Shown: piece by piece, positions 16,926 to 36,031 of the stretch
Numbering within the stretch: the stretch's first letter is position 1
Layout: each line of letters opens with the position of its first letter
Assembly: GCA_002314595.1 (NCBI GenBank)
Contig: DCGP01000017.1
Span: forward strand, 23,879-87,878
Length of the DNA stretch: 64,000 nucleotides
Source of the DNA: Clostridiales bacterium UBA1775
GTDB lineage: Bacteria; Bacillota; Clostridia; Monoglobales; Firm-18
Direction of reading: 5' to 3'
Notes under the pieces: generated by a model
Database searches by the model: none
Told to the model about the DNA's origin: nothing
Seen by the model: only the letters and a program-made list of their open reading frames with translations
Program-made: the position numbers and the translations under genes

Positions 16926-16945
16926 AATTTATGGAGGATTTGAGG

Positions 16946-19900: not shown

Positions 19901-20434
19901 GAAATAAGGTATGAATTAGATGGTGGAGTTAACAATAATGATAATCCAACTGAATATAATATTCTTTATGGAGTGAAATTCAAAGAACCGACAAAAGAAG
20001 GCTATGTTTTTAAAGGTTGGAAGGATAAAAATGGAAACGATATTGCTGGAGTTAACGAAAACTGTAATGCTTCATTTACAAGTGTTGATGATTTTTATAA
20101 TGCAGTAAATTCGAGAACTATTGGTGAAATAACTGTAAAGGCAGATTGGGAACCCATAACACCTTATACGGAATCCGTAGTTTCAGAAGCTAATAACACC
20201 TATGCTATATCAACCGATTTTATCAACATCACATCAGGCAAAATCATTGTTGCCGGATATAAAGATAATAAATTAGTTAACTTTGTTATAAGAGATTATT
20301 CACAGGAAAATGAAAGCTTTGAACTAAGTGGCGATATTGACACCATCAAGGTTATGGTATGGGATGGGCTTAACACCTTAGTGCATCTTACATCAGCGGA
20401 AGTTATTCCACAAAGTAGCTGGGCGACTGAGTAA
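16946..20434 (+). CDS. Secreted multidomain protein: amidase-like domain, 3 tandem Ig/Fn3-like modules, ricin-type lectin, Listeria-Bacteroides repeats
   Basis: Signal peptide MKKIGLYAIISVLFLISFTIQVFAEE. YADKYW...NYNPYGGDCTNFTSQCILAGG resembles the 'putative amidase domain' (Amidase_6) Cys motif. Three ~97-aa repeats. QQW/QKF beta-trefoil motifs (SQQWYVFRR, AQKFEI). Two Flg_new-type repeats (YNANGGTGAP...GYVFWGW; YELDGG...GYVFKGW). Start set to ATG 16946 after GGAGG. Confidence 0.85.
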   Translation: MKKIGLYAIISVLFLISFTIQVFAEENCHSMINEWYGNETIANSIPKTVKEYFDVRKNSLIDSSLFTSNYASEKVQKNENERRVKILEMQCRMNINIVDVDKHIQVLETKVENSNTILTIKEWFFYDYDDLDVEGFKINTAGFGTTHTLIIDKNDTIIDDLYDESETTGIITTESKNTNLISKNMSSSIENIEESNISLMSTNFYSSYNVDAVVTYADKYWQNYNTNFANYNPYGGDCTNFTSQCILAGGMPQVLCSSGMTNGWYYNSTNDRSGTWTVAGYLRNWMANNRGVLVNNPSPSQIYKGSPVFYSSNGGSTWAHATICVGTNSEGTPIIDSHNNDYYHTKWNYWGSSTTYSTVQLTPSNNYTNIPAIQRVVCTTNDASNIGNHSATLSGHFTNPGGAKIVKRGFQWSTTTDMTHYTMFDCNITWEDGLTHNQTTFSPNTTYYYKFVVQGEDGTYVYGNMKSLTTGPFGNMTVTTNDAYNIKTNSATFSGSFSNPNGFDVKKRGFVIGTSSNNLNWEIIFDCDITWSDGLTHTQPGLKAGTTYYYKFVIGDGNGNYKYGGLKSFTTRTALDTVTVTTKDAYNITSNSATFHGSFEPGDYTIKKRGYVIGTDSNNLNWEIIFNCDITWSDGLTHTQPGLQPGTTYYYRMVVGDGNGNYKYGGLKSFTTACNNLSGLYAIRHVATGKYITMGNNDIEGNPTTLVEPRYSGALDTDQQLYFELLSNGAYKITSKRNGYAFEVGGLSKDNAAVVQQWGYGGISSQQWYVFRRNDGYYKLVNVNSRKALDIGSKVQQYEDNNADAQKFEIIPLTYEIIYNANGGTGAPDTQYKVYNQNLTLCNSILTRPGYVFWGWADNVQNAENATYPAGGTFTGNYSTTLYAVWKKATYTNHVQYWTWGYKNGEGDNTDKNAFFVGEYSWNGAFSDSQTFTENMTKEIRGFNYQKKLVSPTFTGEWISYSLPYTFSQPAQDVWANIDYVPTAYEIRYELDGGVNNNDNPTEYNILYGVKFKEPTKEGYVFKGWKDKNGNDIAGVNENCNASFTSVDDFYNAVNSRTIGEITVKADWEPITPYTESVVSEANNTYAISTDFINITSGKIIVAGYKDNKLVNFVIRDYSQENESFELSGDIDTIKVMVWDGLNTLVHLTSAEVIPQSSWATE
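18071..18963 (+). repeat. Three tandem ~97-codon intragenic repeats (units 2 and 3 spaced exactly 300 nt apart)
   Basis: Units begin VVCTTNDASNI / MTVTTNDAYNI / VTVTTKDAYNI and end KSLTT / KSFTT / KSFTT. Units 2 and 3 share long identical DNA stretches (for example aataatttaaattgggaaattattttc at 18494 and 18794). Confidence 0.75.
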
Positions 20435-20817: not shown

Positions 20818-23800
20818 ATGGATAGATTTAAAGATACAAAAAAAGAGTCTATGTTAACAGACAGTCAATTTGGCATTTACCTTGAATGTATTGATGAAAA
20901 TAATTGTGCAGACTACTTATTGCCTATTTCTTTTGTTTTTCAAAAGGGAAAAATTGATGCAGTAAAATTGTCCGACGCATTTGATAAAGTGGCAAATACT
21001 TATTCGGCTTTTTCGACTGTTATCAAAACGGTTAATTCCGAGCCTATTATGACCATTTATGATAAGGAATTGCCAAAACTAAAAGTTAGAAAAATCTCTG
21101 AAAACGATGTCAAAACAAGAAAGATGGAGCTATTTAAGCCATTTTCCTTTAACGGAGAGCTTTTGTGGAGAGGCGAAATCCTTGAAACCGAAAACGATAT
21201 TATATTTTTGCTGATTATCCATCACAATATCTTTGACGGAACATCAATGGCAGTATTAAATAATGCCCTTGCACTTGCCTATGAGGGAAAGGACTTGTCG
21301 GAGGAAGGCACAGTTTTTGATGCAAAAAAAGCAGAAGATGATATGGTTGACAACGGAATTTCAAAAGAATCAATGGATTTTTATGACGAATATTTAGACG
21401 GTATTGAAACCGACTCAAACATAATTCCCGATATGCCACAGGTCAATACCTCAAAAATGGCAGTTGTTGATGTTGCTTGTGAAATACCAATGGATAAAAT
21501 CACAGCCTTTGCAAAGGAAAATTCAGTAACTGAGAATATTGTATTTTTAAGTGCATTTGCCTATACTCTTTGCAAGGTAAATGGTCAAAAAGATGCGCTT
21601 TTCTCCTCAGTTGAAAGTGGACGATTTGGTGGAGGATACAATAATTCGATAGGTATGTTTGTAAAGTCTTTTCCAATCCGAATAAATTATGACGAGGAAA
21701 TTGCGTCCTTTGATTTCGTTAAGGGAGTTAAAACAAACTTTTTTAATACGCTATCACATAATCACATAAAATTTTCTGATTTAATTCAAAATTATTCAGG
21801 AATTGCAGATGTTAGATACATATACCAAGGCGAAATGTTTAAGGGCATTGCAGTTGGTGGTGTTGCTCCTCGCATAGATGTGCTTGATACCTATGAGCCT
21901 GTGTCCAATTTTGACTTTATGGTATACAAAATTGACAACACATTCAGAATATGGTTGGGATATAAATGCACAATGTATACAAGGGAACTAATTGAGCATT
22001 TTGCAGATATGTTTTTTTGTGTTTTAAACGGAATGTTAGACGGCAAAAAACTTGGGGATATTTCCTTTGTATCACAAAAGGGTATGGAGGAATTAGACAA
22101 AATCAATAATACAAAGTTTACCTATGACGAGGGGTTGACGGTAAACAGTATTTTTGAAGAAGCAACCGAGAAATATCCCAATAACATCGCTGTTTTATAC
22201 AAGGATAAAAAGCTGACATACAGTGAGCTTAATACTCAAATCAACAAAGTGGCAACATATGTTTCACAAAAAGGAATAGGCAAAAATGAATTTGTATCGG
22301 TTTTAATTCCAAGAAACGAATTTATGCCAATAACAGCAATGGGAATAATTAAGGCAGGTGCAGGTTATCAGCCTCTTGACCCCACATATCCAAAGGACAG
22401 GCTTGACTTTATGGTATCGGACAGCAAGTCAAAACTTTTGATTGCCGACCGAAGCTTAATAGGATTGTTGTCAGAGTACAAGGGCGATATACTATATACC
22501 GATGAAATTGATAATATTTCCGAAATGCCTTTTAAAACAGACGTAAAACCTGACAACGCATTTGTTTTGATATATACATCGGGCACAACAGGTACGCCAA
22601 AGGGGTGTATTATTGAAAACAAAAATATAGTAGCGCTGTATTTTAATCATAAAAAATTAGTTGAATTGTCGCCTAATTCAAAAGTTGCAACCATTGCAAG
22701 TTTTGGATTTGACGCAGCAGTTATGGATATTTTTACAACGCTTATGGTAGGCGCAACTCTTTATATTATTCCGGATGAAATCAAATTGGATATTCCCGAA
22801 GTAGAAAAAATATACATAGAAAACGGCATAACAAATGGTTTTATGACAACGCAACTGGGACGAATGTTTTTGGAACAAACAAAATGCAAGACACTAAAAC
22901 ATTTCGTTTTAGGGGGAGAAAAGCTTGTGCCATTCACACCACCTGCTTGGGTTCAATGTCATAACTGCTATGGCCCAAGCGAAACAATAGCCTACGTTAC
23001 AGGCTATACCATAAAAGATGACAGTTCGATGCAGCCTATAGGAAAATTAAGCATAAATACAAAGGCATATATTGTAGATTCTACAAACAGGTTGCTTCCT
23101 ATCGGTGCTTGCGGTGAACTTTGTATTGCAGGCTTGCAAGTGGGTAGGGGTTATTTTGAACGCCCTGAAAAGACTGCAGAAGTGTTTGTTAAAAATCCAT
23201 TTTCTAACGAATGTGGTTATGACAGAATATATAAAACAGGCGATGTAGTAAGATTATTGCCCGATGGAAATTTAGACTTTATCGGTCGTCGAGACGGACA
23301 GGTGAAAATTCGTGGATTTAGAATTGAGCTAACAGAGGTTGAACAGGTTATAAGAAGTTTTGACGGCATTAAAAATGCTACTGTTCAAACCTATGATGAT
23401 GCAGTTTCGGGTAAATTTATTGCTGCCTTTATTGTGGCTGACAGCAAGATTGACATTGACAAATTAAACAAATATATTATGAGTCAAAAGCCTGCATATA
23501 TGGTGCCGGCAGTTACCATGCAGATAGATAACATTCCGGTCAATGCAAACGCAAAGGTTGATAAGAAAAAATTGCCAAAGCCGGAGTATAGTTTTGGTGA
23601 AATTGTCGCACCTCAAAACAACACGCAACAAGATATTTTTGATATAGTTACATCAGTTATCGGAACAACTGCAATAAGCATTGATACCGATTTGTATCTT
23701 GCAGGTCTTTCTTCGATAGGTAGTATTAAACTATGTTCACTTTTAGCAGAGAAATTTAATATAACTATTCAAATGAAGGATTTAAAGCAAAACAATACCA

Positions 23801-26800
23801 TAGTAAAACTCGAGACGTTTGTGGATACAGCCGGACAAAATGCTGAGTTTGAACGTACAATACTTGACGATTATCCATTAACTAAAACACAAGAGGGTAT
23901 TTTTGTTGAATGTATATCAAAGCCTGAAAGTACAGTCTACAATATCCCAATTTTGTTAAAACTTTCGGATAAGCTTGATATAAATAAGTTAAAATCGGCA
24001 ATAGTTAGTGCAGTTTCAGCTCATCCCTACATTAAAACAGAGCTATTTACCGATGAAAACGGAACTGTTCGTCAAAAGAAAATGGACGATGCTCATTTTG
24101 ATGTTGACAGTATTGACAATATAAACGAAGAAATAGACAGCATAAAAGAAACATTGATACAACCCTTTGAGCTGTTAAATTCAAGACTGTTTAGGGTAAA
24201 GATAATTAAAGATTCCTATTTGTTCTTGGAATTTCATCACATTATTCTTGACGGAACGAGCATTAACCTATTTCTACGTGATATTGAAAAGGCATATTGT
24301 GGTGAGGAGCTCCAAGAAGAACGTTATAATAGTTTTGACTTGTCATATAACGAGGAGCAAAAAAGAAAAACATCAGCACTTGATGAGGCTAAAAAACACT
24401 ACGACAATATTTTAGATGGACTTGATATGAACTTCTTGCCTGAGCCGGACAGACTTATGTCGGCAAAAAAGGATAGTGGAAGCCTTTTGATGAGTCAAAT
24501 GTTACCTTCTGTTGATAAGGTTTTGGAATATTGTAACAAGAACAATATAGGTATAAACGGCTTTTTGTCCGGTGTATTTGGGTTTGTGCTTGCAAAATAT
24601 GCAGGAACTGAATACTCTGTTTTCAACACAATTTATAATGGTCGAAACGATTCCAGGGCAATGACAACTATCGGTATGCTTGTAAAAACAATTCCTGTTG
24701 TTTGCAATATCGAAAAGGAAAATTCAGCAGATATAGCAAAGGCTGTTTCATCACAAATTATAGACAGTATGACAAATGACCTATATTCCTTTGCAGAAAT
24801 CTGTAATGAGTATGGCGTTAGAAACGATATTGTTTTTGTATACCAAGGAGACGACTTTGAGTTTAATACCTTCTGTGGTGAAACGGTTAGCGAGGTACAT
24901 CTTGAATTATCCGAATCAAAGGCACCCATTGCCTTTGAGGTTTCAATCGTAAATGGTAAATTTAATTATAAGGTTGACTATAATGCCGAAATATTTACCG
25001 AAAAACTAATACAGACCTTAGTATGTGCTTTTGATAAAGCTATTTATTCCTTTGTTAATGGCGAAAAGGTAAGTGAAATTTCCCTTTTGACTGATGAAAT
25101 CACTAAGGAACTTGATAAATATAACGAAACCGAATTCGTATATGATACATCTAAAACTATTATTGACCACTATATAGAGCAAGTGAAGTTGAACCCTGAT
25201 AGGAAATGTGTTGTATACAAAGATAAAACATACACCTACAAAGAGGCCAATGATTTATCACGAAAGGTTTCATCCCATTTGATTTCAAGTGGAATAAACA
25301 AGGGTGATATTGTCGCAATTTTAATAAACCGTGATGAAAATATGATTCTTGCGTCCTATGGTGTTATTATGTCAGGATGTGCTTATGTAGGACTTGACCC
25401 AACATATCCAAAGGATAGGCTTGACCTTATGATTACCGATAGTGGAGCAAAGGCGTTGATTGCCGACCGAAGCCTAATGGGACTTATAAGTAAACCTGAC
25501 TGTAAAATCATATATACCGATGAATTTGAAGCCTTGCCAACCAACGATGATGTTGTAGACCAAAGAATCAGCGAAATAACACCGAATGACAGATGTTTGG
25601 TAATATATTCATCAGGAACGACAGGAGTGCCAAAGGGTGCAGTTTTGTGCCATAAAAACGTTGTTAGTTTCTATTACAATTATACAAATGATATGGATAT
25701 TAAGGTAGGCTCTTGTGTTGCAACCTATGCAAGCTTTGGGTTTGACGGAGGTGCACAAGATGTGTTCTGTTGCCCTATGTCAGGGGCAAGTTTGTACGTT
25801 ATTCCTGATGATATTAGGCTTGATATGGACAAGCTTGAACAATTCTATATCCAAAACAAAATAACAAGTGGATTTATGACAACACAAGTTGGTGCAATGT
25901 TTGTAAACAATACAAAGTGCCGTACACTACGCAACTTCTTAGTTGGTGGAGAAAAGCTTATTCCTGCAATTCCACCTGCTTGGACAAACTTTATGAATGG
26001 TTACGGTCCCAGCGAAACTATGTGTTATGTAAACAAATACCATGTTGCAGATACAGGAAATCTTCAACCAATCGGAAAGACAAGCAAGAATGTTAAAGAA
26101 TACATAATTGATAAGTACGGAAACAGACTTCCCTTTGGTGCTTGTGGTGAGCTTTGTATTTCAGGTGGTCAAACAGGTATGGGTTATCTGAACAGACCTG
26201 AAAAAACAGCACAATCATTTGTAAAAAATCCGTTCTGCAACCTTGAACCTTATGACAGAATGTATAAAACCGGCGATATTGCAAGGATAATGCCTGACGG
26301 AAATTATGTATTTGTAGGCAGACGGGACGGCCAGGTTAAGATTCGAGGATTTAGAGTTGAACTTTCGGAAATCGAACAACAAATAAGAAAATTTGACGGA
26401 ATAACAAATGCCACTGTTGAAGCATTTGATAGTAGCACAGGTGGAAAATTCCTTGCTGCTTACATTGTAGCAAATAAAGAAATTGACATTGCAAAATTAA
26501 ATGAATTTATAGCATCGGAAAAGCCTGACTATATGGTGCCTGCCGTAACAATGCGACTTGACGAAATACCACTTACTTCAAATGGTAAGGTAGACAAGAA
26601 AAAACTTCCTAAGCCGACCCCAACAACAAGAAAGGGAATTGAGCCTGCAAACGAAACGGAAGAAACTATTTGCGATATTTTTGAAGAGGTTTTAGGACTT
26701 GAAAAAGTATATGCCGATGATGATTTCTTTGCAATAGGTGGTTCATCTATCTCGGCAATCCAAGTTGTTGTAAAATGTAATAACGCAGGGTATAGCATAG

Positions 26801-28077
26801 TATTTAAAAATCTATTTTCAAACCCTACACCTCACGGATTATGTGAGTTTATTCACGGAGGACGTGATACAAAAGTATTTGCTCCTGATGATAAAGAAGC
26901 AGACAAATATGATTACAGTGCTTTAAAATACAACACAGTGGACTATGTAAACGAAATTACCTCAGGAGAAATAGGCGATGTTCTTTTGACAGGCGTTACA
27001 GGATTTTTAGGTAGCCATATTTTAAAGGAATTGATTGAAAACACAAGTGGAAACGTCATTTGTTTGGTTAGAGCAAAGGGCGATATGAGTGGTGAAACAA
27101 GATTCCAAATGATGATGACCTACTATTTTGAAGATTGGTTTACCGATGAAATGAAAAAACGTGTTACTGTGATTGAAGGCGAGCTGGGCGACGAAGGTAT
27201 TTTGGAAAAAGTTAAGGATTGCCATTTTGACACTATTATCAACAGTGCTGCAAATGTAAAGCATTTCGCAGCAGGCGATGAATTATTAAAGGATAACTTT
27301 ACGGGTGTTGGGAATATGGTTGCTCTTGCAGAAGAAAAGAATGCGTTATTTGTGCAAATTTCTTCAACAAGTGTCAGTGGTGAAGCCGTTGAGGGTGGAG
27401 TTTCAGACGATTTCTTGTTTAGAGAATGCGACCTAAACATTGGTCAATCCCTTGAAAATAAGTATATTTTTTCAAAATATCAAGCAGAACAACTTGTTAT
27501 TGATGCAATTTCAAAGGGGAAAATTAGGGGCAAGGTAATTCGTTTAGGCAACCTTATGGCAAGAGAGAATGACAGCGAATTCCAAATAAATGCCGGTTCA
27601 AACGGATTCTTAAAACAATTTTCCGGTTATAAAAAACTTGCAATGTTCCCTGTTGATTTGATGGATAAGCATATTGAATTTTCTCCCATAGATTCGACGG
27701 CAAAGGCAATAGTGTTGTTATCGGGAACTCCTGACAAGTTTACCGTATTCCACGCAAAAAACTGCAACTCTATACATTACGGATACTTTATTAACGCAAT
27801 GATTAGCAAGGGAATAAATATAAATATTGTGCCTAATGAGGTTTTTACAAAGCGATATAAGCAAGCACTAAATGAGGAAACGGACATTTCGGATTTTACA
27901 TCATTTATTGCATATATGAGCAATGCAAACAGCGATAAAGTTATGCACCAAATTGAATCAAGTGCAGATTTTACCACAAAGGCGTTATACAGACTTGGCT
28001 TTGCTTGGCCGTTAATAAGTAGCAAATATTTAGAGGAAATGGTTAAAACACTAATTGATTTAAGCTTTTTCTCATAA
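20818..28077 (+). CDS. Dimodular non-ribosomal peptide synthetase, C-A-T-C-A-T-R (terminal thioester reductase)
   Basis: Motifs read directly. C1 HHNIFDG (nt ~21220). A1 LIYTSGTTGTPKG / NCYGPSE / GRRDGQVKIRGFRIEL / NAKVDKKKLP. T1 LAGLSSIGS (~23700). C2 HHIILDG (~24235). A2 VIYSSGTTGVPKG / NGYGPSE / GRRDGQVKIRGFRVEL / NGKVDKKKLP. T2 FAIGGSSIS (~26740). Reductase Rossmann LLTGVTGFLGSHIL (~26985) and Y-x3-K (YIFSK). No TE domain. Confidence 0.95.
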   Translation: MDRFKDTKKESMLTDSQFGIYLECIDENNCADYLLPISFVFQKGKIDAVKLSDAFDKVANTYSAFSTVIKTVNSEPIMTIYDKELPKLKVRKISENDVKTRKMELFKPFSFNGELLWRGEILETENDIIFLLIIHHNIFDGTSMAVLNNALALAYEGKDLSEEGTVFDAKKAEDDMVDNGISKESMDFYDEYLDGIETDSNIIPDMPQVNTSKMAVVDVACEIPMDKITAFAKENSVTENIVFLSAFAYTLCKVNGQKDALFSSVESGRFGGGYNNSIGMFVKSFPIRINYDEEIASFDFVKGVKTNFFNTLSHNHIKFSDLIQNYSGIADVRYIYQGEMFKGIAVGGVAPRIDVLDTYEPVSNFDFMVYKIDNTFRIWLGYKCTMYTRELIEHFADMFFCVLNGMLDGKKLGDISFVSQKGMEELDKINNTKFTYDEGLTVNSIFEEATEKYPNNIAVLYKDKKLTYSELNTQINKVATYVSQKGIGKNEFVSVLIPRNEFMPITAMGIIKAGAGYQPLDPTYPKDRLDFMVSDSKSKLLIADRSLIGLLSEYKGDILYTDEIDNISEMPFKTDVKPDNAFVLIYTSGTTGTPKGCIIENKNIVALYFNHKKLVELSPNSKVATIASFGFDAAVMDIFTTLMVGATLYIIPDEIKLDIPEVEKIYIENGITNGFMTTQLGRMFLEQTKCKTLKHFVLGGEKLVPFTPPAWVQCHNCYGPSETIAYVTGYTIKDDSSMQPIGKLSINTKAYIVDSTNRLLPIGACGELCIAGLQVGRGYFERPEKTAEVFVKNPFSNECGYDRIYKTGDVVRLLPDGNLDFIGRRDGQVKIRGFRIELTEVEQVIRSFDGIKNATVQTYDDAVSGKFIAAFIVADSKIDIDKLNKYIMSQKPAYMVPAVTMQIDNIPVNANAKVDKKKLPKPEYSFGEIVAPQNNTQQDIFDIVTSVIGTTAISIDTDLYLAGLSSIGSIKLCSLLAEKFNITIQMKDLKQNNTIVKLETFVDTAGQNAEFERTILDDYPLTKTQEGIFVECISKPESTVYNIPILLKLSDKLDINKLKSAIVSAVSAHPYIKTELFTDENGTVRQKKMDDAHFDVDSIDNINEEIDSIKETLIQPFELLNSRLFRVKIIKDSYLFLEFHHIILDGTSINLFLRDIEKAYCGEELQEERYNSFDLSYNEEQKRKTSALDEAKKHYDNILDGLDMNFLPEPDRLMSAKKDSGSLLMSQMLPSVDKVLEYCNKNNIGINGFLSGVFGFVLAKYAGTEYSVFNTIYNGRNDSRAMTTIGMLVKTIPVVCNIEKENSADIAKAVSSQIIDSMTNDLYSFAEICNEYGVRNDIVFVYQGDDFEFNTFCGETVSEVHLELSESKAPIAFEVSIVNGKFNYKVDYNAEIFTEKLIQTLVCAFDKAIYSFVNGEKVSEISLLTDEITKELDKYNETEFVYDTSKTIIDHYIEQVKLNPDRKCVVYKDKTYTYKEANDLSRKVSSHLISSGINKGDIVAILINRDENMILASYGVIMSGCAYVGLDPTYPKDRLDLMITDSGAKALIADRSLMGLISKPDCKIIYTDEFEALPTNDDVVDQRISEITPNDRCLVIYSSGTTGVPKGAVLCHKNVVSFYYNYTNDMDIKVGSCVATYASFGFDGGAQDVFCCPMSGASLYVIPDDIRLDMDKLEQFYIQNKITSGFMTTQVGAMFVNNTKCRTLRNFLVGGEKLIPAIPPAWTNFMNGYGPSETMCYVNKYHVADTGNLQPIGKTSKNVKEYIIDKYGNRLPFGACGELCISGGQTGMGYLNRPEKTAQSFVKNPFCNLEPYDRMYKTGDIARIMPDGNYVFVGRRDGQVKIRGFRVELSEIEQQIRKFDGITNATVEAFDSSTGGKFLAAYIVANKEIDIAKLNEFIASEKPDYMVPAVTMRLDEIPLTSNGKVDKKKLPKPTPTTRKGIEPANETEETICDIFEEVLGLEKVYADDDFFAIGGSSISAIQVVVKCNNAGYSIVFKNLFSNPTPHGLCEFIHGGRDTKVFAPDDKEADKYDYSALKYNTVDYVNEITSGEIGDVLLTGVTGFLGSHILKELIENTSGNVICLVRAKGDMSGETRFQMMMTYYFEDWFTDEMKKRVTVIEGELGDEGILEKVKDCHFDTIINSAANVKHFAAGDELLKDNFTGVGNMVALAEEKNALFVQISSTSVSGEAVEGGVSDDFLFRECDLNIGQSLENKYIFSKYQAEQLVIDAISKGKIRGKVIRLGNLMARENDSEFQINAGSNGFLKQFSGYKKLAMFPVDLMDKHIEFSPIDSTAKAIVLLSGTPDKFTVFHAKNCNSIHYGYFINAMISKGININIVPNEVFTKRYKQALNEETDISDFTSFIAYMSNANSDKVMHQIESSADFTTKALYRLGFAWPLISSKYLEEMVKTLIDLSFFS

Positions 28078-28093
28078 AAAGGAAGGTATAAAA

Positions 28094-28390
28094 ATGAATA
28101 TTGAAGTAAAAAAAGAAAACGGAAACACTGTGATTTGCCTAAACACAAGGCTTGACTCGACCACTGCCGGTGAATTAGATGAAGTAATTCAAAAAGAAGT
28201 GCAGGCTGTTGAAAACAATATGATAGTTGACTTGAAAAATGTTGATTTTGTATCATCTATCGGACTTCGTGTGCTTGTTTCTGCTTACAAGTCACTAGAC
28301 GGAAAGCAGATGATAATAAAAAATGCAAACAGTTCGATAATAGAGGTGTTAAAGCTATCCGGATTGTTATCTCTGTTTACAGTTGAGTAG
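28094..28390 (+). CDS. STAS-domain protein (anti-sigma-factor antagonist, SpoIIAA/RsbV type)
   Basis: 98 aa. DLKNVDFVSSIGLRVLV aligns with SpoIIAA LEDLSFMDSSGLGVIL, so the phospho-acceptor Ser (S54/S55, nt 28253-28258) is present. C-terminal LKLSGL motif. SD AGGAAGG, 16 nt after the NRPS stop. Confidence 0.85.
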   Translation: MNIEVKKENGNTVICLNTRLDSTTAGELDEVIQKEVQAVENNMIVDLKNVDFVSSIGLRVLVSAYKSLDGKQMIIKNANSSIIEVLKLSGLLSLFTVE

Positions 28391-28399
28391 GGTAACGTT

Positions 28400-30169
28400 A
28401 TGGAAAACAAAAAGAAAAGTATCGAATATACGAGAAATGAACGAACAACAAATAAAGTAGTAGCATTCTTTTTGCTTCTCTTCGTTGCAATGACTATCGT
28501 AAACGAGTTTATTCTAACAGTTGACTATGCAACAAACTTGGATTATGCAAACAAGTATGTATATTTTCCAATAAGCATTGTCTTAGTCTGCATTTTTGCG
28601 ATTGCATGGATATATAATTTTGAGGCATATTGGCTAAAACACGTACTGATGGGTGGACTTATTTTAGTGTCCATTATTGTGTTCTTTGTGTTTACAACCT
28701 ACGCATTGTATTCTGTCTTTATACCACTAATTATTGCAACACGATATTTTAATAAAAAAATGATTTACACAGTCTCTATAATTACCGGGGTGTTGTTTGT
28801 TGTTGCATGTATATTAAATGTCACACTGGAATCTGTTTCGGAAACAATTCAAATATTTCACCAAAATGTTGTATATAACATTTGGCAAAGTTATCTTGAC
28901 GCCATTGTTTATATAGCAATTCCTTGCCTTTTGGTTATGGTATTCATGTTAATTTTCGGAATAAATTTAACCAAAAGTGGAAGAAATTTGCTAATGGAAC
29001 AAATAGATAATAATAAAAAGATTGCATCAGTTGACGCCGAGCTTGAAATGGCAGCCAAAATACAAAAAAGCGTTCTTCCAAAGCCATATTTTCAAACGGA
29101 AAATAAAAACTTTACTTTGTCGGCATTTGAAACTCCGGCAAAGGAGGTTTGTGGAGATTTTTTTGACTATTTCATGGCAGGGGAAAACAGCATGGCGATA
29201 TTGGTTGCAGATGTGTCCGACAAAGGTGTTCCTGCAGCAATGTTTATGATGTCTGCCAAAAAGGTAATGCAATGCGCGATTGAAAGCTGCGATACATTAG
29301 ACGATGCCATTGAGCTTGCTAACAAACTAATATGCAACGACAACCAATACGGAATGTTCTTGACATTGTGGATGGGTGTAATAAATGTCAAAAGTGGTGT
29401 AGGAAAATATGTAAATGCAGGTCATCCATACCCCATTATAAAACACGCAGATGGCAGTGTTGAGTTTATTGAAAATGAACCCGATTTATTTCTTGGCAAT
29501 TTCCCAAAAAAGAACCCGAAAGTCAATACCTTTGTTATGAAGCCTGATGACGTGCTTTTTATTTACACTGATGGTTTGACTGACTCAATGAATCAGAAAA
29601 GGGAATGTTTTGGTATTAAAAGAGTTATTAACCAAATAGAGCAAAGTGAAAATGATGCTGAAAAGCTGGCCAAGTCTGTAATCGAGTCAGTAAAAGAGTT
29701 TTCAAAGGAAAGTGTTCAATTTGACGATATAACAACGCTTTGTCTAAAATGCAACAAAATTGATGAGCCGGATTTTGCAAGTTGTAAGATTACTAGTGGA
29801 ACAGAAGGCACTAAAATAATCAATGACAAAATTCAAGAGATGTTAATAAATGCAAAATGTCCTGATGAAAAGCGTCGCAATATTGGTGTAGTAGTTGATG
29901 AAATTTGCGCAAACATCAACGAACACGGCTATCACGAAAACGGAGAAATTGAAGTTAACGCACTTGTTGGAGATAATTATGCTAAAATCCAATTTTTAGA
30001 CAACGGCAAAGCCTTTAATCCTCTTGAAAAAACCGACCCGATTATAACCGACGAACCACAAATAGGTGGGTTGGGAATTTATTTTGTAAAGCAACTTTCC
30101 GACAACTTTTCCTATGAATATGTTGACGGAAAAAACAAACAGACAGTGTTATTTATATGGAATATGTAA
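28400..30169 (+). CDS. Membrane-anchored PP2C (SpoIIE/RsbU-type) phosphatase fused to an RsbW/SpoIIAB-type HATPase kinase domain
   Basis: About 5-6 TM helices (aa ~20-195). PPM motifs VCGDFFDYF, ILVADVSDKGVPAAMFM, IYTDGLTDS, FDDITTLCL. C-terminal GHKL ATPase N-box VVVDEICANINEHGY, G1 FLDNGKAFNP and G2 GGLGIYFVKQL. Starts 9 nt after the STAS stop. Confidence 0.85.
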   Translation: MENKKKSIEYTRNERTTNKVVAFFLLLFVAMTIVNEFILTVDYATNLDYANKYVYFPISIVLVCIFAIAWIYNFEAYWLKHVLMGGLILVSIIVFFVFTTYALYSVFIPLIIATRYFNKKMIYTVSIITGVLFVVACILNVTLESVSETIQIFHQNVVYNIWQSYLDAIVYIAIPCLLVMVFMLIFGINLTKSGRNLLMEQIDNNKKIASVDAELEMAAKIQKSVLPKPYFQTENKNFTLSAFETPAKEVCGDFFDYFMAGENSMAILVADVSDKGVPAAMFMMSAKKVMQCAIESCDTLDDAIELANKLICNDNQYGMFLTLWMGVINVKSGVGKYVNAGHPYPIIKHADGSVEFIENEPDLFLGNFPKKNPKVNTFVMKPDDVLFIYTDGLTDSMNQKRECFGIKRVINQIEQSENDAEKLAKSVIESVKEFSKESVQFDDITTLCLKCNKIDEPDFASCKITSGTEGTKIINDKIQEMLINAKCPDEKRRNIGVVVDEICANINEHGYHENGEIEVNALVGDNYAKIQFLDNGKAFNPLEKTDPIITDEPQIGGLGIYFVKQLSDNFSYEYVDGKNKQTVLFIWNM

Positions 30170-30214: not shown

Positions 30215-30260
30215 AAAAACGACTAACATTTAGTTAGTCGTTTTGTAGTTTATTTAAAAT
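30215..30260 (+). repeat. 46-bp direct repeat, copy A (contains terminator hairpin 30216-30244)
   Basis: AAAAACGACTAACATTTAGTTAGTCGTTTTGTAGTTTATTTAAAAT is identical to 33209-33254. The hairpin AAAACGACTAAC-attta-GTTAGTCGTTTT ends the NRPS operon. Confidence 0.9.
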
Positions 30261-30320
30261 AAAGCGTGAAAACAAAAAGCAGGTTGAAGAAAGACTTATT
30301 GAAAAATATATAGGCGAAAT

Positions 30321-31073
30321 CTAAATTGTCATATTCTTTCTCATTTTTAAAGGTGCAATTTTATATTTCTTTTCAAATTCTTTTCTAAAATATGAATAAG
30401 AACTAAATCCCAAATCGTCACTGATTTGGGATATTTTTTTATCTGTTGAAACTATCATATCCTTTGCTTTTTCAAGAATTATTTCTTTTCTCATAGAATT
30501 CAAGGTTGTATTTGATGATTTTCTGAAAGCAAAATAAATCCCTGACGGGCTAATATCAAATTTTTCGGAAATTTCGTAAATTGTGGCTTTGGGATTTTTA
30601 TACAAGTAATTGTTTATTTTTTCAACAAGCTTTATGGATTTATTAACCTTAATGCTTTTCATATTTTCCATTAAATGCCCAACCAAAAAATAAAATCTTC
30701 CTATATCTTTCGGAGAAAGCTTTCTTACATCTTTCAACTCGTCAAAGATTTTAATATTTTCTTTATCACACTCAACAACTTGAACAGGATAACTTTTACT
30801 GTCAACATTAGGCAAAAATTCAAAACCCAAGGAAACGAATTTAATCTTTGGAGTTCCGTACCAATATGATCTATACCCTTGCTTATTGGGAATATAAAAC
30901 ACATCGCCTTTATTTATTTCAACATAATAATCCTTTGTTACAATTTTACATCTTCCCTCTTCCATATATGCAAAATAATGAGCACCTATCCCCTTTTGAT
31001 TATCTGTGTAATGATATGAATCAAATGAAAAATAATTAAAATTAAAACTATTAGCGAAAATTATGTCATTCAT
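30321..31073 (-). CDS. AraC family transcriptional regulator (cupin + HTH)
   Basis: N-terminal cupin-like sensor (GDVFYIP) and C-terminal double HTH (ISQISDDLGFSSYSYFRKEFEKKYKIAPLKMR). Confidence 0.85.
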   Translation of the reverse strand: MNDIIFANSFNFNYFSFDSYHYTDNQKGIGAHYFAYMEEGRCKIVTKDYYVEINKGDVFYIPNKQGYRSYWYGTPKIKFVSLGFEFLPNVDSKSYPVQVVECDKENIKIFDELKDVRKLSPKDIGRFYFLVGHLMENMKSIKVNKSIKLVEKINNYLYKNPKATIYEISEKFDISPSGIYFAFRKSSNTTLNSMRKEIILEKAKDMIVSTDKKISQISDDLGFSSYSYFRKEFEKKYKIAPLKMRKNMTI

Positions 31074-31180
31074 ACCAAATCTCCCTAAAATACTTGAATA
31101 AAATTACCTGTTTTTTAAATTATATCATCTTTTTTTTATTCTGTCAATTTGCTATAATTAGGTTTAGAGGTGATGATTTT

Positions 31181-32203
31181 ATGAAAAACAAAAGAATAGT
31201 ATTTACAAAACCGTATACAGCAGAGCTTCTAGATGTTGAGATGAATCAGCTTAATGACAACGATGTTAAGGTTAAAACTATGTTTAGTACAATAAGCTGT
31301 GGAACGGAAAAAGCAAATTATATAGGCGACCCAAACTGCTCCGTATCAAGTAACGCAAAAACTACTTTCCCAAGGTCTGTTGGTTACAGCAGTTCAGGTG
31401 TTGTTGTAGAAGTAGGCAAAAACGTTAAAGACCTTAAGGTCGGTGACAGAGTTGTAACTTTTTGGGGAGTTCATACAAAATACAATATTTTAAATGAAGG
31501 CAGAGTTGTAAAAATCGAATATGACGACGTAGATTTTCAATCTGCAGCAATGACATTTATTTCAACATTTCCTCTTGCAGCAATCAGAAAAACAAAAATT
31601 GAAATTGGTGAAAGTGCTATGGTTATGGGACTTGGAATTCTTGGAATTTTTGCCGTTAAATATTTAAGACTTGCAGGAGCAACACCAATTATTGCAGTAG
31701 ATTTTAACAAAGAAAGACGAGAAATTGCTTTAAAAAACGGAGCAGATTTTGCCTTTGACCCGTCTAATGAAAACTTTTCCGAAAAGGTTAAACAGGTTAC
31801 AAACGGGGGAGTTAACGTTGCAATTGAGGTTACGGGTGTCGGAGAAGGACTTAATGAAGCCCTTGACTGTATGAAGAAAATGGGAAGAGTCGCTCTTCTC
31901 GGTTGCACAAGAAATTCCAATTTCACCGTTGATTACTATAAAAAAGTTCACGCACCGGGAATTTCTTTAATTGGCGCTCACACTAATGCAAGGCCCGGTA
32001 ATGAATCTTATCCTAATCATTTTACACATAGAGATGACATAAAAGTTGCTTTAAATTTGTTACATTCAAAAAGGGTTGAGTTTATTTCTTTAATTCAGGA
32101 ATTTCACTCACCAAAGGATTGCACAAAGGTTTATGATCGTCTTGTTAACGACAAAAGTTTCCCTATTGTTTCTCAATTTGATTGGAGGGACATTGATGAT
32201 TAA
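31181..32203 (+). CDS. Medium-chain (Zn-type) dehydrogenase/reductase family oxidoreductase
   Basis: GroES-like N-domain (SCGTE, GDRV) and Rossmann GLGILGIFAV. Start at ATG 31181. The track's extension to 31094 is AT-rich non-coding. Confidence 0.8.
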   Translation: MKNKRIVFTKPYTAELLDVEMNQLNDNDVKVKTMFSTISCGTEKANYIGDPNCSVSSNAKTTFPRSVGYSSSGVVVEVGKNVKDLKVGDRVVTFWGVHTKYNILNEGRVVKIEYDDVDFQSAAMTFISTFPLAAIRKTKIEIGESAMVMGLGILGIFAVKYLRLAGATPIIAVDFNKERREIALKNGADFAFDPSNENFSEKVKQVTNGGVNVAIEVTGVGEGLNEALDCMKKMGRVALLGCTRNSNFTVDYYKKVHAPGISLIGAHTNARPGNESYPNHFTHRDDIKVALNLLHSKRVEFISLIQEFHSPKDCTKVYDRLVNDKSFPIVSQFDWRDIDD

Positions 32204-33227
32204 AATTGCCCAAATCGGCATAGGTCATGACCATGCTGTTTGTATGATAAACTCACTTAAAAATCTTCCGGAAATTTTCGAAATTGTGGGGTACTGCATT
32301 GTTCCTGAAGAATACGAAACAGCCAAAGACAAGTTTGATGAAAAAACAAGAAAAAGTTATGACGATATTAAAGAAATGACCGTTGAAGAAATTTTGAATT
32401 TTGAAGGGCTTCAAGCAGTTACAATTGAAACAGAGGACAGAAGCTTAACCAAATATGCAATTCTTGCAGCAGAAAAAGGCCTTGCAATTCAAATGGACAA
32501 ACCGGGAAGTGCCTCTGATGAAGATTTTGACAAATTGATTGACCTTGTTAAAGAAAACAATCTTGTTTTTTCAACAGGTTATATGTATCGCTTTAACCCT
32601 GCAGTTATTGAACTTAAAGAAAAAATAAAAAAAGGTGACTTTGGAGAAATTTATTCCATTGATGCTACTATGAATTGTACTCACAACGTTCTAAAAAGAG
32701 AGTGGCTAAAAAATTATCCGTCAGGAATGTTATATTTTTTAGGTTGCCACTTAATTGATTTGGTTTACAGTATTTTAGGTGAGCCTAAAAATGTTATCCC
32801 TTTAAGCAGACACACAGGAATTGACAATGTTGATGCAGATGACTTCGGTATGGCAATTTTCGAATACGAAAACGGGGTTTCAACCGTTAAAAGTACCTCA
32901 GTTGAATGTGGTGGCTATTTGCAAAGGAGGTTAACTCTTTGTGGTTCAAAGGGAACCTTTGAAATTCAACCTCTCGAAAGCCATGCAGAAGAAAATTTGC
33001 CTTTTGCCTACGGATTGACAACATCAACAAAGGAAAATCATGATAATAATTGGGGGTCATCACCAATAATTAAGGATTATAAGCCATTCCCAAGATATAA
33101 CAATATGCTTTGTGCCTTTGCCGATTACATTTTAGGCAAAAAAGAAAATCCATACTCTTATGAGTATGAAAGAAATTTACATAAGCTTATATTAAAGGCT
33201 TGTACTAAAAAAACGACTAACATTTAG
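32196..33227 (+). CDS. Gfo/Idh/MocA family oxidoreductase
   Basis: N-terminal Rossmann MIKIAQIGIGHDHA. GGAGGG SD 5 nt before ATG 32196. It overlaps the upstream gene by 8 nt. The last six codons (KKTTNI) and the stop lie inside repeat copy B. Confidence 0.8.
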   Translation: MIKIAQIGIGHDHAVCMINSLKNLPEIFEIVGYCIVPEEYETAKDKFDEKTRKSYDDIKEMTVEEILNFEGLQAVTIETEDRSLTKYAILAAEKGLAIQMDKPGSASDEDFDKLIDLVKENNLVFSTGYMYRFNPAVIELKEKIKKGDFGEIYSIDATMNCTHNVLKREWLKNYPSGMLYFLGCHLIDLVYSILGEPKNVIPLSRHTGIDNVDADDFGMAIFEYENGVSTVKSTSVECGGYLQRRLTLCGSKGTFEIQPLESHAEENLPFAYGLTTSTKENHDNNWGSSPIIKDYKPFPRYNNMLCAFADYILGKKENPYSYEYERNLHKLILKACTKKTTNI

Positions 33228-33254
33228 TTAGTCGTTTTGTAGTTTATTTAAAAT
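33209..33254 (+). repeat. 46-bp direct repeat, copy B (bidirectional terminator 33210-33238)
   Basis: Perfect copy of 30215-30260. It spans the 3' ends of both converging genes (oxidoreductase stop 33225-33227, uxaC stop 33248-33250). Confidence 0.9.
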
Positions 33255-34615
33255 TCAAAATATTCTTTTGCGTTATAATAGCATATACCTTGTATTATTT
33301 TTTTAAGGTGCTTTTGGTCGTTTGGATATTCGCCTTTTTCTACCCATTCACCTATCATATTACATAGTATTCGTCTAAAATATTCGTGGCGTGGATAGGA
33401 TACAAAGCTACGAGAGTCTGTAAGCATACCAATAAAATTACCAAGTGTGCCAAGGTTTGCAAGGGCTTTTAGCTGTGCTTCCATACCATCTCTGTTATCA
33501 TTAAACCACCAGCCTGATCCAAACTGTATCTTACCCTTATAGGGTGCCTTTTGGAAGTTACCTAACATAGTGCCAAGCACATAGTTGTCCTTTGGATTTA
33601 ATGTGTAAAGTATTGTTTTTGGCAACACGTCGTTAAGTTCAAGATAGTTCATAAATGCAGAAAGCTTTTCGGCAATATTTAGGTCATTTATAGAGTCAAA
33701 GCCGGTATCTGCACCAAGTTTATTATACATTTTACTGTTGTTGTTTCTCAACGCACCAATGTGAAGCTGCATTGCCCAGTTGCGTTTGGAATATTCAGTA
33801 GCACATATTTTGAGCATAGCTGTCTTAAACGAGTCTATTTCCTCAATGGTAAGTGCTTCACCCTTCATCTTTTTGTTAAATGCTTTTCTTGCATCTCCTA
33901 TGGCAAATGGTACATATTCCATAGCGTGGTCGGATAGTTTGCAACCATTTTGCTCAAAATAATCTATCCTGTCTACAATCCACTTGGTTAGTTCTTCGTA
34001 TGTGCTGACGCCAATTTCTTTAAGATAAGGTACAAATGTTTCTTTGTCTATGTTTGTGGCATTGTCAGGTCTGAACGTAGGCAATACTTTTGTCCTAAAT
34101 CCATCTTTTTTTAGCTTAATGTGATATTCAAGATTGCTTGCCGGGTCATCTGTGGTGCATATTACCTCTACATTTGATTTTTCTATCAGGCTTTTACATG
34201 AAAACTCTTTTGATTTAAGCAGTACATTGCACCTATCCCAAATTTCCTTTGCATTATCCTCAGAAAGTGCATGGTCAATATCAAAATATCTCTTTAATTC
34301 AAGTGATGTCCAATGATAAAGTGGGTTGCCTATAAGAAGTGGCATAGTCTTTGCAAAGCAAAGCCATTTTTCATATTCGTCCTTATCGCCTGTGATATAT
34401 TCTTCATCAATGCCGTTACTGCGAATTTGACGCCATTTGTAGTGGTCGCCACCTAAAAATAATTCCTGAGCATTTTTAAACGTAGCGTCATTTGCTATCA
34501 TTTCCGGAACCAAATGGCAATGATAGTCTATTATAGGCAAGTTTTTTGCATATTCTTCATAGAGCTTTTTTCCTGTTTCGTTATATAACATAAAGTTCTT
34601 ATTTATTATTCCCAT
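33248..34615 (-). CDS. uxaC: Glucuronate/galacturonate isomerase
   Basis: N-terminal LPIIDYHCHL motif, DHYKWR, and ~455 aa length typical of UxaC. Confidence 0.9.
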   Translation of the reverse strand: MGIINKNFMLYNETGKKLYEEYAKNLPIIDYHCHLVPEMIANDATFKNAQELFLGGDHYKWRQIRSNGIDEEYITGDKDEYEKWLCFAKTMPLLIGNPLYHWTSLELKRYFDIDHALSEDNAKEIWDRCNVLLKSKEFSCKSLIEKSNVEVICTTDDPASNLEYHIKLKKDGFRTKVLPTFRPDNATNIDKETFVPYLKEIGVSTYEELTKWIVDRIDYFEQNGCKLSDHAMEYVPFAIGDARKAFNKKMKGEALTIEEIDSFKTAMLKICATEYSKRNWAMQLHIGALRNNNSKMYNKLGADTGFDSINDLNIAEKLSAFMNYLELNDVLPKTILYTLNPKDNYVLGTMLGNFQKAPYKGKIQFGSGWWFNDNRDGMEAQLKALANLGTLGNFIGMLTDSRSFVSYPRHEYFRRILCNMIGEWVEKGEYPNDQKHLKKIIQGICYYNAKEYFEF

Positions 34616-34652: not shown

Positions 34653-36031
34653 TTATAGTGTTACTCCGTCTTTAAATATAGATATTTCTTCAAAACCGTT
34701 TATTTCATTTTTTGTCTTTTTGCCCGATGCAATATCTATAATAAAATCTAATAAATTATCTGCTAAATCATCTAATGAAATTCCGTCTAATATAGGTGAT
34801 GAGTCAAAATCTATCCAATGTGCTTTTTTGGTAGCAAGAGCTTTGTTGGTAGATATTTTAACCGTAGGCACTGTACTGCCAAGAGGCGTACCTCTGCCTG
34901 TGGTAAACAATATTATATGTACCCCTGATGCCATAAGGTTGGTTACGGCAACCATGTCATTGCCGGGCCCGTTAAGCAAGGATAATCCGTTTTTTGATAC
35001 AGTATCACCATAGTTAAGCACATCTACAACATTAGCAAGTCCTCCCTTTTGCACACATCCTAAGGACTTTTCTTCCAATGTGGTAATTCCTCCTTTTTTG
35101 TTGCCGGGCGATGGGTTTTCATATATTACCTGATTATGAAGTCTGTAATAATCTTTGAAGTTGTTAATAAGGTCAACTGTTTTGTCAAAAACCTTTTTGT
35201 TTTTGCATCTTTCCATTAAAAGATGCTCTGCGCCAAACATTTCCGGTACCTCGGTTAGAACACAGCTTCCTCCAAAGGATATAACCTTATCTGAAAGCTT
35301 GCCAACCAACGGATTGGCGCTAATACCACTAAACCCATCACTGCCACCACATTTCAAGCCAATACGCAAATGTGAGATATTTATAGGCTTTCTTTCAAAT
35401 GTGCTTGCGTATGCTTTTAGTTCATTTATTAGCTCTATACCCTTTGCAATTTCATCTTCCTCATCTTGGCAATTTAGAAACTTAACTCTTTTTTCTTGGT
35501 AATCACCAAGTATTTTTTAAATTCATCAATATTATTATTTTCACAGCCAAGGCCAAGTACAAGCACACCACCGGCGTTAGGGTGGTTAACCATACCCTTT
35601 AATATCAGTTGTGTTGTGGTTTGGTCGTCCCCAAGCTGTGAGCAACCAAATGGGTGAGGAAAACACTTTGCCCCTGTCTCTTGGGCAAGCTTTTGTGCAA
35701 CCTTATTTACACAGCCCACAGTATTTACTATCCATACGTCATTGCGAATACCAACATCCCCATTTTCTCTCACATATCCCATAAATGTTCTGTCGCTTTT
35801 ACAATACTCTATTCCATAATCCTTATAGTTGTATGTATATTGCAAATTATCCGATAAATTAGTTTTAATATTGTGGGTGTGAACGTGTTCACCTTTTTTT
35901 ATATCGCATATTGCATGGCCTATGGGGTAGCCGTATTTTATAATATTTTCACCACGTTTGATGTTACATACGGCATACTTGTGTCCGTTATCAAGGTTAA
36001 CCTCTACATTATCTCTTTCACTAATCAACAT
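34653..36031 (-). pseudogene. uxaA: Altronate dehydratase interrupted by a -1 nt frameshift near 35506-35509
   Basis: ORF 35474..36031 gives the SAF domain plus ...GLGCENNNIDEFKKYL and then stops. Shifting one base continues GDYQEKRVKFLNCQDEEDEIAKGIELINELKAYASTFERKPINISHLRIGLKCGGSDGFSG into ORF 34653..35369. TACTTGGTGAT would read TAC TTN GGT GAT with one extra base. Confidence 0.75.

Follow-up and report, generated by a model that had tools for sequence, protein, structure and literature searches.

The closest described counterparts of the locus treated here are att-flanked islets and islands and cis-mobilizable elements (CIMEs), transposons and insertion sequences (IS) with their target-site duplications, the small modules of the integrative mobile elements exploiting Xer (IMEX) and of Acinetobacter pdif, the minimal mobile elements of Neisseria, and bidirectional Rho-independent terminators. 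Integron cassettes, with which the locus was likewise compared, are promoterless and carry attC sites of 57–141 nucleotides (nt) with R''/L''/L'/R' boxes, with the integron integrase nearby. A dif-like site has 28 bp and consists of a XerC arm, a 6-nt spacer and a conserved XerD arm, and unusually long, variable target duplications have been reported for IS1634-type elements. In many bacteria, intergenic palindromes are known that also serve as terminators and occur as repeats. The locus lies in a 64,000-nucleotide stretch of Clostridiales bacterium UBA1775 (contig DCGP01000017.1, positions 23,879 to 87,878), referred to here as the window, and consists of an AraC-family regulator gene and an operon of a medium-chain dehydrogenase/reductase (MDR) and a Gfo/Idh/MocA oxidoreductase, bracketed by two perfect 46-bp direct repeats. 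As the most economical account we favour, with a probability of roughly one half, a single insertion of this module into the terminator of uxaC (glucuronate isomerase) that duplicated 46 bp of the target.

The repeat, here called R, reads AAAAACGACTAACATTTAGTTAGTCGTTTTGTAGTTTATTTAAAAT. Its 46 nt occur at 30215–30260 (R-A) and 33209–33254 (R-B), both on the plus strand with 0 mismatches and 2994 bp apart from start to start, and an exact-match search found precisely these two copies in the window, as the original prediction had reported; 100 dinucleotide shuffles gave 0 matches. When up to 3 mismatches were allowed no third copy was found in the window, nor did a blastn-short search of it with word size 7 detect a diverged copy, the next best hits being AT-rich matches of 12–14 nt. 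A scattered multi-copy repeat, which had been named as an observation that would speak against insertion, was therefore not seen in these 64 kb. Comparison of the ±200 nt flanking both copies revealed no similarity past the 46 nt.

R-A is situated between the converging genes for a SpoIIE-type phosphatase (28400–30169, plus strand) and the AraC regulator (30321–31073, minus strand), and both of its ends are non-coding there. Its earlier placement after the nonribosomal peptide synthetase (NRPS) operon holds for the NRPS-STAS-SpoIIE block as a whole; R-A follows the SpoIIE-type gene by 45 nt and does not stand directly behind the NRPS gene. R-B is situated between the converging Gfo/Idh/MocA gene (32196–33227, plus strand) and uxaC (33248–34615, minus strand; Pfam UxaC, 4e-193) and, as predicted, spans the ends of both, with the Gfo TAG on the plus strand and the uxaC TAA on the minus strand lying inside it. 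Six Gfo codons had been attributed to this copy, a number to be corrected to five full codons (KTTNI); the copy further provides the TAG stop and, ahead of the five codons, the last base of a Lys codon. For uxaC the claim that R-B supplies the stop and the last codons is right about the TAA, to which one full last codon (Phe) and one base of a Glu codon are added.

Which of the two copies came first is suggested by the uxaC end. R positions 40–46 correspond to the 3' end of uxaC, with the stop at positions 40–42 on the opposite strand, the final Phe codon and 1 nt more, and among 120 UxaC homologs almost all have 455 amino acids and a C-terminus of the form ...YFxF. R-A carries the same 7-nt end, TTAAAAT, 3 kb away from uxaC, where it codes for nothing. 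As these positions are native uxaC sequence, R-A would derive from the terminator adjacent to uxaC, and judged from the sequence it must be a duplicate of that terminator. The uxaC hairpin begins 9 nt past the stop and has a T7 run behind it; relatives have a uxaC terminator of other sequence at an equal distance after the stop, which fits R as uxaC's own terminator. The conserved core of Gfo ends with ...LHKLILKAC, 7 residues before the stop, and in Gfo homologs the core is followed by a variable tail of 1–15 residues (alignment A1). The Gfo TAG falls at R positions 17–19, within the R-B hairpin loop, and the last five codons are likewise inside R-B. Since a stop codon in the hairpin loop would be awkward for a native terminator, this gene end looks like a secondary fusion and not like the native arrangement.

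The hairpin of R takes up positions 2–30: its 12-bp stem is perfect, contains 4 G-C pairs and closes a 5-nt loop, and a 16-nt tail follows. In R-A the hairpin extends over 30216–30244 (terminator scan and RNA folding) with the stem arms AAAACGACTAAC/GTTAGTCGTTTT, an A-run before and a T-rich sequence after it on the plus strand, on which the terminator scan listed R as an intrinsic terminator. Read on the minus strand, the stem leads into a T5 run at copy A and a T7 run at copy B. R-A RNA folds at -15.3 to -15.8 kcal/mol (z = -3.4 to -3.9 against shuffled sequences) and R-B RNA at -17.2 kcal/mol (z about -5), so that both strands of R, at -15 to -17 kcal/mol and z = -3.4 to -5.1, are far below the shuffled controls. 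In silico, R therefore has a stem-loop and a U-run on both strands and is located at the 3' ends of converging units. No second hairpin was detected by terminator scan and sequence reading at the 3' ends of the four genes that converge on the R copies, none separate from R in the 45 nt between the SpoIIE-type gene and R-A, and no terminator of the module's own in the terminator scan of 30261–33208. No Rfam family matched over R. With other hairpins absent from the four gene ends, and given the converging layout, R is best described as a predicted bidirectional intrinsic terminator, and four transcription units are now predicted to depend on its two copies for termination.

The segment between the repeats, the putative insert, has 2948 bp (30261–33208) and runs from 60 nt past the AraC stop to a point inside Gfo codon 338. 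In agreement with the original prediction it contains the AraC regulator (250 amino acids; Pfam HTH_18, 8.8e-14) and, divergent from it, the zinc-ADH-like MDR dehydrogenase (31181–32203, plus strand, 340 amino acids; Pfam ADH_zinc_N, 1.6e-23), whose stop overlaps the start of the Gfo/Idh/MocA gene (343 amino acids, assigned by Pfam) by 8 nt according to the gene calls. NCBIfam matches of the window proteins were all far below the cut-offs. The same trio recurs as a unit in three Clostridia contigs in unrelated contexts with 48–64% protein identity (AraC, 250 amino acids, 48–51% identical; MDR, 338–340 amino acids, 61–64% identical; overlapping Gfo, 335–343 amino acids), namely between a BlaR-type peptidase and LarA (L017), between a melibiase and a metallo-beta-lactamase-fold protein (L019) and adjoining a type I dehydroquinase (L021). 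A rearranged variant with an added short-chain dehydrogenase/reductase (SDR) and dehydroquinase was found in a further contig (L023). Because of this recurrence in unrelated contexts the segment delimited by R would represent exactly one recognisable portable unit, and by comparison of these loci it is a conserved, co-inherited and apparently self-regulated module. None of the other four loci with the trio or its variant is flanked by direct repeats longer than 9 nt, and no bounding repeat was found in the contig of the closest Gfo homolog (L025), indicating that the repeat belongs to this insertion site and not to the module.

The divergent promoter region (31119–31158; promoter scan and sequence reading) accommodates putative promoters of both units. 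For AraC a perfect TTGACA-17-TATAAT with TG was located on the minus strand from 31147 to 31119 (12/12 matches in the promoter scan), and for the MDR-Gfo operon an extended -10, TGCTATAAT, was read back to back with it at 31150–31158 on the plus strand. For a regulator gene, a promoter that fits the consensus perfectly is of unusual strength. In other Clostridia a type I 3-dehydroquinase and an SDR are encoded next to the module or within it (L021, 2173–2943; L023, 3438–7061), which hints at a quinate-, shikimate- or cyclitol-like substrate of the trio.

From these observations we infer the ancestral arrangement, the direction and the mechanism of the event as follows. R would originally have been a lone bidirectional intrinsic terminator at the uxaC 3' end, common to uxaC and a convergent neighbour, for which the SpoIIE-type gene that now lies at the left is the simplest candidate. 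The AraC/MDR/Gfo module would have entered this terminator in one recombination event that left a full 46-bp copy on either side. It presumably arrived without terminators, and the Gfo gene, having lost its own stop, would now read five codons into R-B, so that all four transcription units end in an R copy. The event was probably illegitimate or partly guided by homology, and probably proceeded without a dedicated recombinase. One possible route would be a donor fragment that used homology in uxaC and R as its anchor and had its other end joined illegitimately just right of the recipient R, and such one-ended homologous recombination is consistent with every junction; alternatively, a staggered break could have been repaired. 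However the two direct repeats arose, they would permit, being perfect over 46 bp, a precise RecA-type deletion of the cassette, after which one functional terminator would be left. Taken together, the locus looks like a one-off insertion scar rather than a new kind of mobile element.

Relatives of either flank were compared at the same place. The 53% SpoIIE relative (UBA1734, contig L009), the only match in GTDB, has an unrelated convergent gene of 2607 amino acids as its right flank and no cassette. In the 70% SpoIIE relative (L010) a different terminator is followed by 380 nt of non-coding DNA, again without the cassette, and the 78% UxaC relatives have kept the AraC/GH4/uxaB/uxaA/uxaC operon with no cassette downstream of uxaC. 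Relatives sharing the cassette with diverged repeats, which would also have spoken against insertion, were thus not observed among those examined. The gene after uxaC in the 78% relatives (L011–L016) is either URO-D-like or a peptidase S8 with SpoIIID. As this gene differs among relatives, the uxaC 3' end appears to be a variable junction and a recurrent rearrangement boundary, and on the same comparison the cassette at this position is, in all probability, lineage-specific.

The same R-cassette-R arrangement is present in a 24.6-kb contig of the Joint Genome Institute (JGI; Ga0207380_11877329), and the locus also occurs in a 127-kb NCBI contig and in the Logan contigs of SRR5323895. These three assemblies show 0–1 nt differences in up to 16 kb, indicating that they represent one population and not independent strains. 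The Logan contigs, built with k=31, break in R at positions 30 and 17: one (L003) ends at R position 30 and the cassette contig (L005) corresponds to window 30231–33238. An exact repeat of at least 31 nt forces such breaks at k=31, and they are therefore uninformative on alternative arrangements. To the right of the cassette, the JGI contig extends to 45 nt upstream of the uxaC start (window about 34660), and a UxaC variant, I125F (P0361), is encoded on a 5.5-kb Logan contig; both suggest that this flank has strain microdiversity or low coverage.

Several points weigh against the insertion account. Since the assemblies that contain the locus all represent one population, they are uninformative as to polymorphism. 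An empty site, in which the SpoIIE-type gene, one R and uxaC follow each other, was found in no collection scanned, the closest relatives having 70–78% protein identity, and SpoIIE-uxaC adjacency was seen in none of the relatives examined (SpoIIE 70% and 53%, UxaC 78%). The ancestral order of NRPS operon, terminator and uxaC put forward in the original prediction is thus supported by the uxaC end carried in copy A, but no examined relative has these flanks side by side, so that it is deduced from the repeat alone. Similarly, the proposed insertion at the 46-mer gains from the portability of the module and from relatives of either flank that lack the cassette, while the empty site that it calls for was not encountered. 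GC content, GC at third codon positions (GC3) and codon usage of the cassette are within the host range with no sign of recent foreign origin, and a foreign-DNA signature of the three genes was rejected, their codon-usage distance also being inside that range. The search for further R copies in this genome covered the 64 kb of the window. We know of no well-established mechanism that routinely yields a 46-bp target duplication. Finally, TTAAAAT and the A-run could be microhomologies of another type of event, which would remove the argument for the original copy.

This last point is the basis of an explanation that we consider unlikely, although not negligible, in which the cassette was already resident and a short stretch with one terminator was later written over the site at the other end, 3 kb distant. 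This could have happened by two microhomology-mediated template switches or through a short tract of gene conversion, with the A-run as the point of entry and TTAAAAT as the point of exit. The left end of R is an A5 run (A7 at copy B) and would offer plausible microhomology, as would the AT-rich right end TTAAAAT, whose 8–9-mers recur many times in the window. Moreover, terminators naturally flank transcription units, so two copies around a module need not mean that the module moved, and the cassette has a host-like composition. Two precise template switches over 3 kb would be a rare event, however, and this sequence of steps leaves unexplained why no trace of the module's own terminator or stop codon is left at either end. 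The absence of the cassette at this place from the sampled relatives speaks against it as well.

Perfect direct repeats of a length typical for att sites, placed around a discrete module that has no internal recombinase but occurs in many different Clostridia contexts, could also mean that R is an attachment site and that the non-autonomous cassette was moved by a recombinase encoded elsewhere, with the terminator hairpin as the target, in the manner of CIMEs that lack an integrase, IMEX elements or pdif modules. Its two 12-nt arms and 5-nt spacer superficially resemble a recombinase core. We regard this as very unlikely, because the other four loci with the trio or its variant have no flanking direct repeats above 9 nt, R is missing from 185,579 reference genomes and from JGI metagenome and viral contigs save for one unrelated hairpin, and the palindrome is fully accounted for by the terminator role. 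On reading the sequence, R has neither dif-like arms nor attC architecture.

No recombinase or integrase, transposase, phage or plasmid genes were found by Pfam in the 64-kb window, so that the reported absence of a recombinase gene is confirmed for the cassette and extends to the whole window; an integrase-mediated island would thus lack its defining recombinase gene, while the direct repeats are there and no empty site was seen in the relatives, which are distant and do not have the two flanks adjacent. A transposon or IS with a target-site duplication was rejected as no transposase domain was present in the window and no terminal inverted repeats were seen inside the duplication: the only inverted repeat linking the regions of 30261 and 33208 is the R hairpin itself (pair I9), and the insert ends AAAGCGTG... 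and ...GTACTAA are unrelated. An integron cassette does not agree with a palindrome of only 29 nt, three genes with divergent promoters of their own and the lack of an integrase. For a Xer-dependent element (IMEX or pdif) no dif-like sites could be recognised in R by eye against the consensus; the AT-rich 11-mer TTATTTAAAAT at R positions 36–46 is 9/11 like a XerD arm by eye, and the complementary ...ATAA is missing from GTTAGTCGTTT, the presumptive XerC arm. A plasmid origin was rejected since the best plasmid match of Gfo is below 25% identity.

About as improbable as an attachment site is the membership of R in a dispersed terminator repeat family of the repetitive extragenic palindromic (REP) or miniature inverted-repeat transposable element (MITE) type, two members of which would flank the cassette by chance or after independent insertion. 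In its favour are the precedent of terminator-like palindromic repeats mentioned above, the restriction of the search in this genome to 64 kb and an identical 12-bp stem in an unrelated metagenome contig. This contig resulted from a search with the hairpin pattern AAAACGACTAAC-N5-GTTAGTCGTTTT, which had 0 matches in 185,579 GTDB species genomes, 0 matches in viral contigs and 1 match in JGI metagenome contigs (L008, 7143–7171). The stem and an upstream A7 run are identical there, but loop and downstream sequence, and indeed everything outside the stem, differ, and the hairpin is flanked by genes for a fatty-acid hydroxylase and a SPFH-domain protein, an unrelated context; we therefore rejected it as a relative of R and judge it probably to be a chance-convergent terminator. 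In addition, the window has no third copy, not even a diverged one, the genome and viral collections returned no matches, and the right end of R is conserved uxaC coding sequence, which would be unexpected for an inserted element.

A small chance, hardly different, is left for the trio being a recombinase-less cassette that a trans-acting enzyme integrates into bidirectional terminator hairpins while duplicating the whole terminator. If true, every unit would be insulated, the insertion would be reversible, and this would be a new way to move small catabolic modules in Clostridia genomes. The least probable explanation is an assembly artefact, with an empty site and a cassette located elsewhere or circular as the true state and a de Bruijn loop threaded through R: in a k=31 graph an empty site together with a 2994-bp circle looks no different from the integrated state, and the Logan contigs do break exactly at R, but two assemblies (127-kb NCBI, 24.6-kb JGI) run through both copies, reads longer than 46 nt would resolve R, R provides the Gfo stop codon and the sole AraC terminator, the composition is host-like, and a 3-kb circle without a replication gene is implausible.

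The window itself is ordinary chromosomal DNA, with the dcw cell-wall cluster among its genes. To the left of R-A, the NRPS gene (20818–28077), the STAS protein gene (28094–28390) and the SpoIIE-type gene, all on the plus strand, form a block (window 20818–30169) of which the latter is the last member; it encodes a fusion of a SpoIIE-type phosphatase with a RsbW-like HATPase_c_2 domain (Pfam SpoIIE 1.3e-43, HATPase_c_2 5.3e-17). The NRPS of this block has the order C-A-T-C-A-T-reductase. NRPS and fusion gene occur in the same order in the 53% relative, Ruminococcaceae UBA1734 (L009, 2229–11764), and the STAS-fusion gene pair is retained in the 70% relative (L010, 205–2280), which hints at a partner-switching module that is functionally tied to the NRPS. 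Further left, the ORF (open reading frame) 16931–20434 encodes a protein of 1167 amino acids with amidase, ricin-lectin and Listeria-Bacteroides repeat domains, inside which a unit of ~303 nt is present in 3 tandem copies (window 18158–18961) that are 62–80% identical over 198 nt. Beyond uxaC follow the remaining hexuronate operon and its own AraC regulator. In this operon uxaA (altronate dehydratase; window 34653–36031, minus strand) is split into ORFs of 185 and 238 amino acids, whereas relatives have a single intact protein of 459 amino acids. The frame changes at TTTAAAAAATAC, an A6 run at 35513–35518 where an A7 run would restore the frame, so that the split reflects either an error of sequencing in the homopolymer or a true pseudogene within the operon adjoining the cassette.

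If the favoured single insertion into the uxaC terminator is correct, the locus would be a clean natural case of a small self-regulated metabolic module entering a chromosome without a mobility gene. The duplication of the host terminator would have allowed the neighbouring operons to keep their transcription stops, and the insertion would be reversible via the 46-bp repeats. The ends of conserved operons might then serve as landing pads for accessory genes, with the uxaC end as an example, its downstream neighbour being different in every relative examined. No general mechanism can be derived from one occurrence in one uncultured population; the locus is of use as a clearly bounded case in which excision could be looked for, and as a model for finding long terminator duplications around inserted modules in other genomes. 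A search of the literature for terminator duplication or terminator-flanked islets yielded nothing relevant.

Compared with known systems, the locus shares with att-flanked islets, islands and CIMEs an accessory block, perfect repeats of tens of bp that contain a conserved gene 3' end, and relatives without the block. It differs from them in having no integrase or integrase remnant in the window, in a block of only 2.9 kb with three intact genes, in a repeat that is a terminator and not the end of a tRNA or tmRNA gene, and in a module that occurs elsewhere without flanking repeats. As in a target-site duplication of a transposon or IS, the target is directly duplicated on both sides of the insert, but transposase and terminal inverted repeats are missing and 46 bp is far beyond the usual 2–15 bp. 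IMEX and Acinetobacter pdif modules are likewise small, lack a recombinase and are flanked by a short, partly palindromic site; R, however, has no 11-nt arm/6-nt spacer/11-nt arm structure, its copies are direct and not alternating, and it was found at no other site in the collections. Bidirectional Rho-independent terminators have in common with R the stem-loop, the upstream A-run, the downstream T-run and the position between convergent genes, whereas two identical 46-bp copies 3 kb apart, one of them overlapping two coding ends, are peculiar to this locus. The minimal mobile elements of Neisseria, and chromosomal hotspots at which genes are exchanged between conserved flanks, are similar in that variable whole-gene cassettes stand beside a conserved operon and are presumably exchanged by recombination without dedicated mobility genes, and here too the neighbour downstream of uxaC varies among relatives. 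In those elements alternative cassettes are found between the same flanks in several strains, while here one state was seen and the flanks are nowhere adjacent in relatives. From this likeness to recombination-hotspot cassettes and the failure of the att, transposon, dif and attC definitions, the locus is filed as an unusual variant of known insertion scars, with a long target duplication, rather than as a new class.

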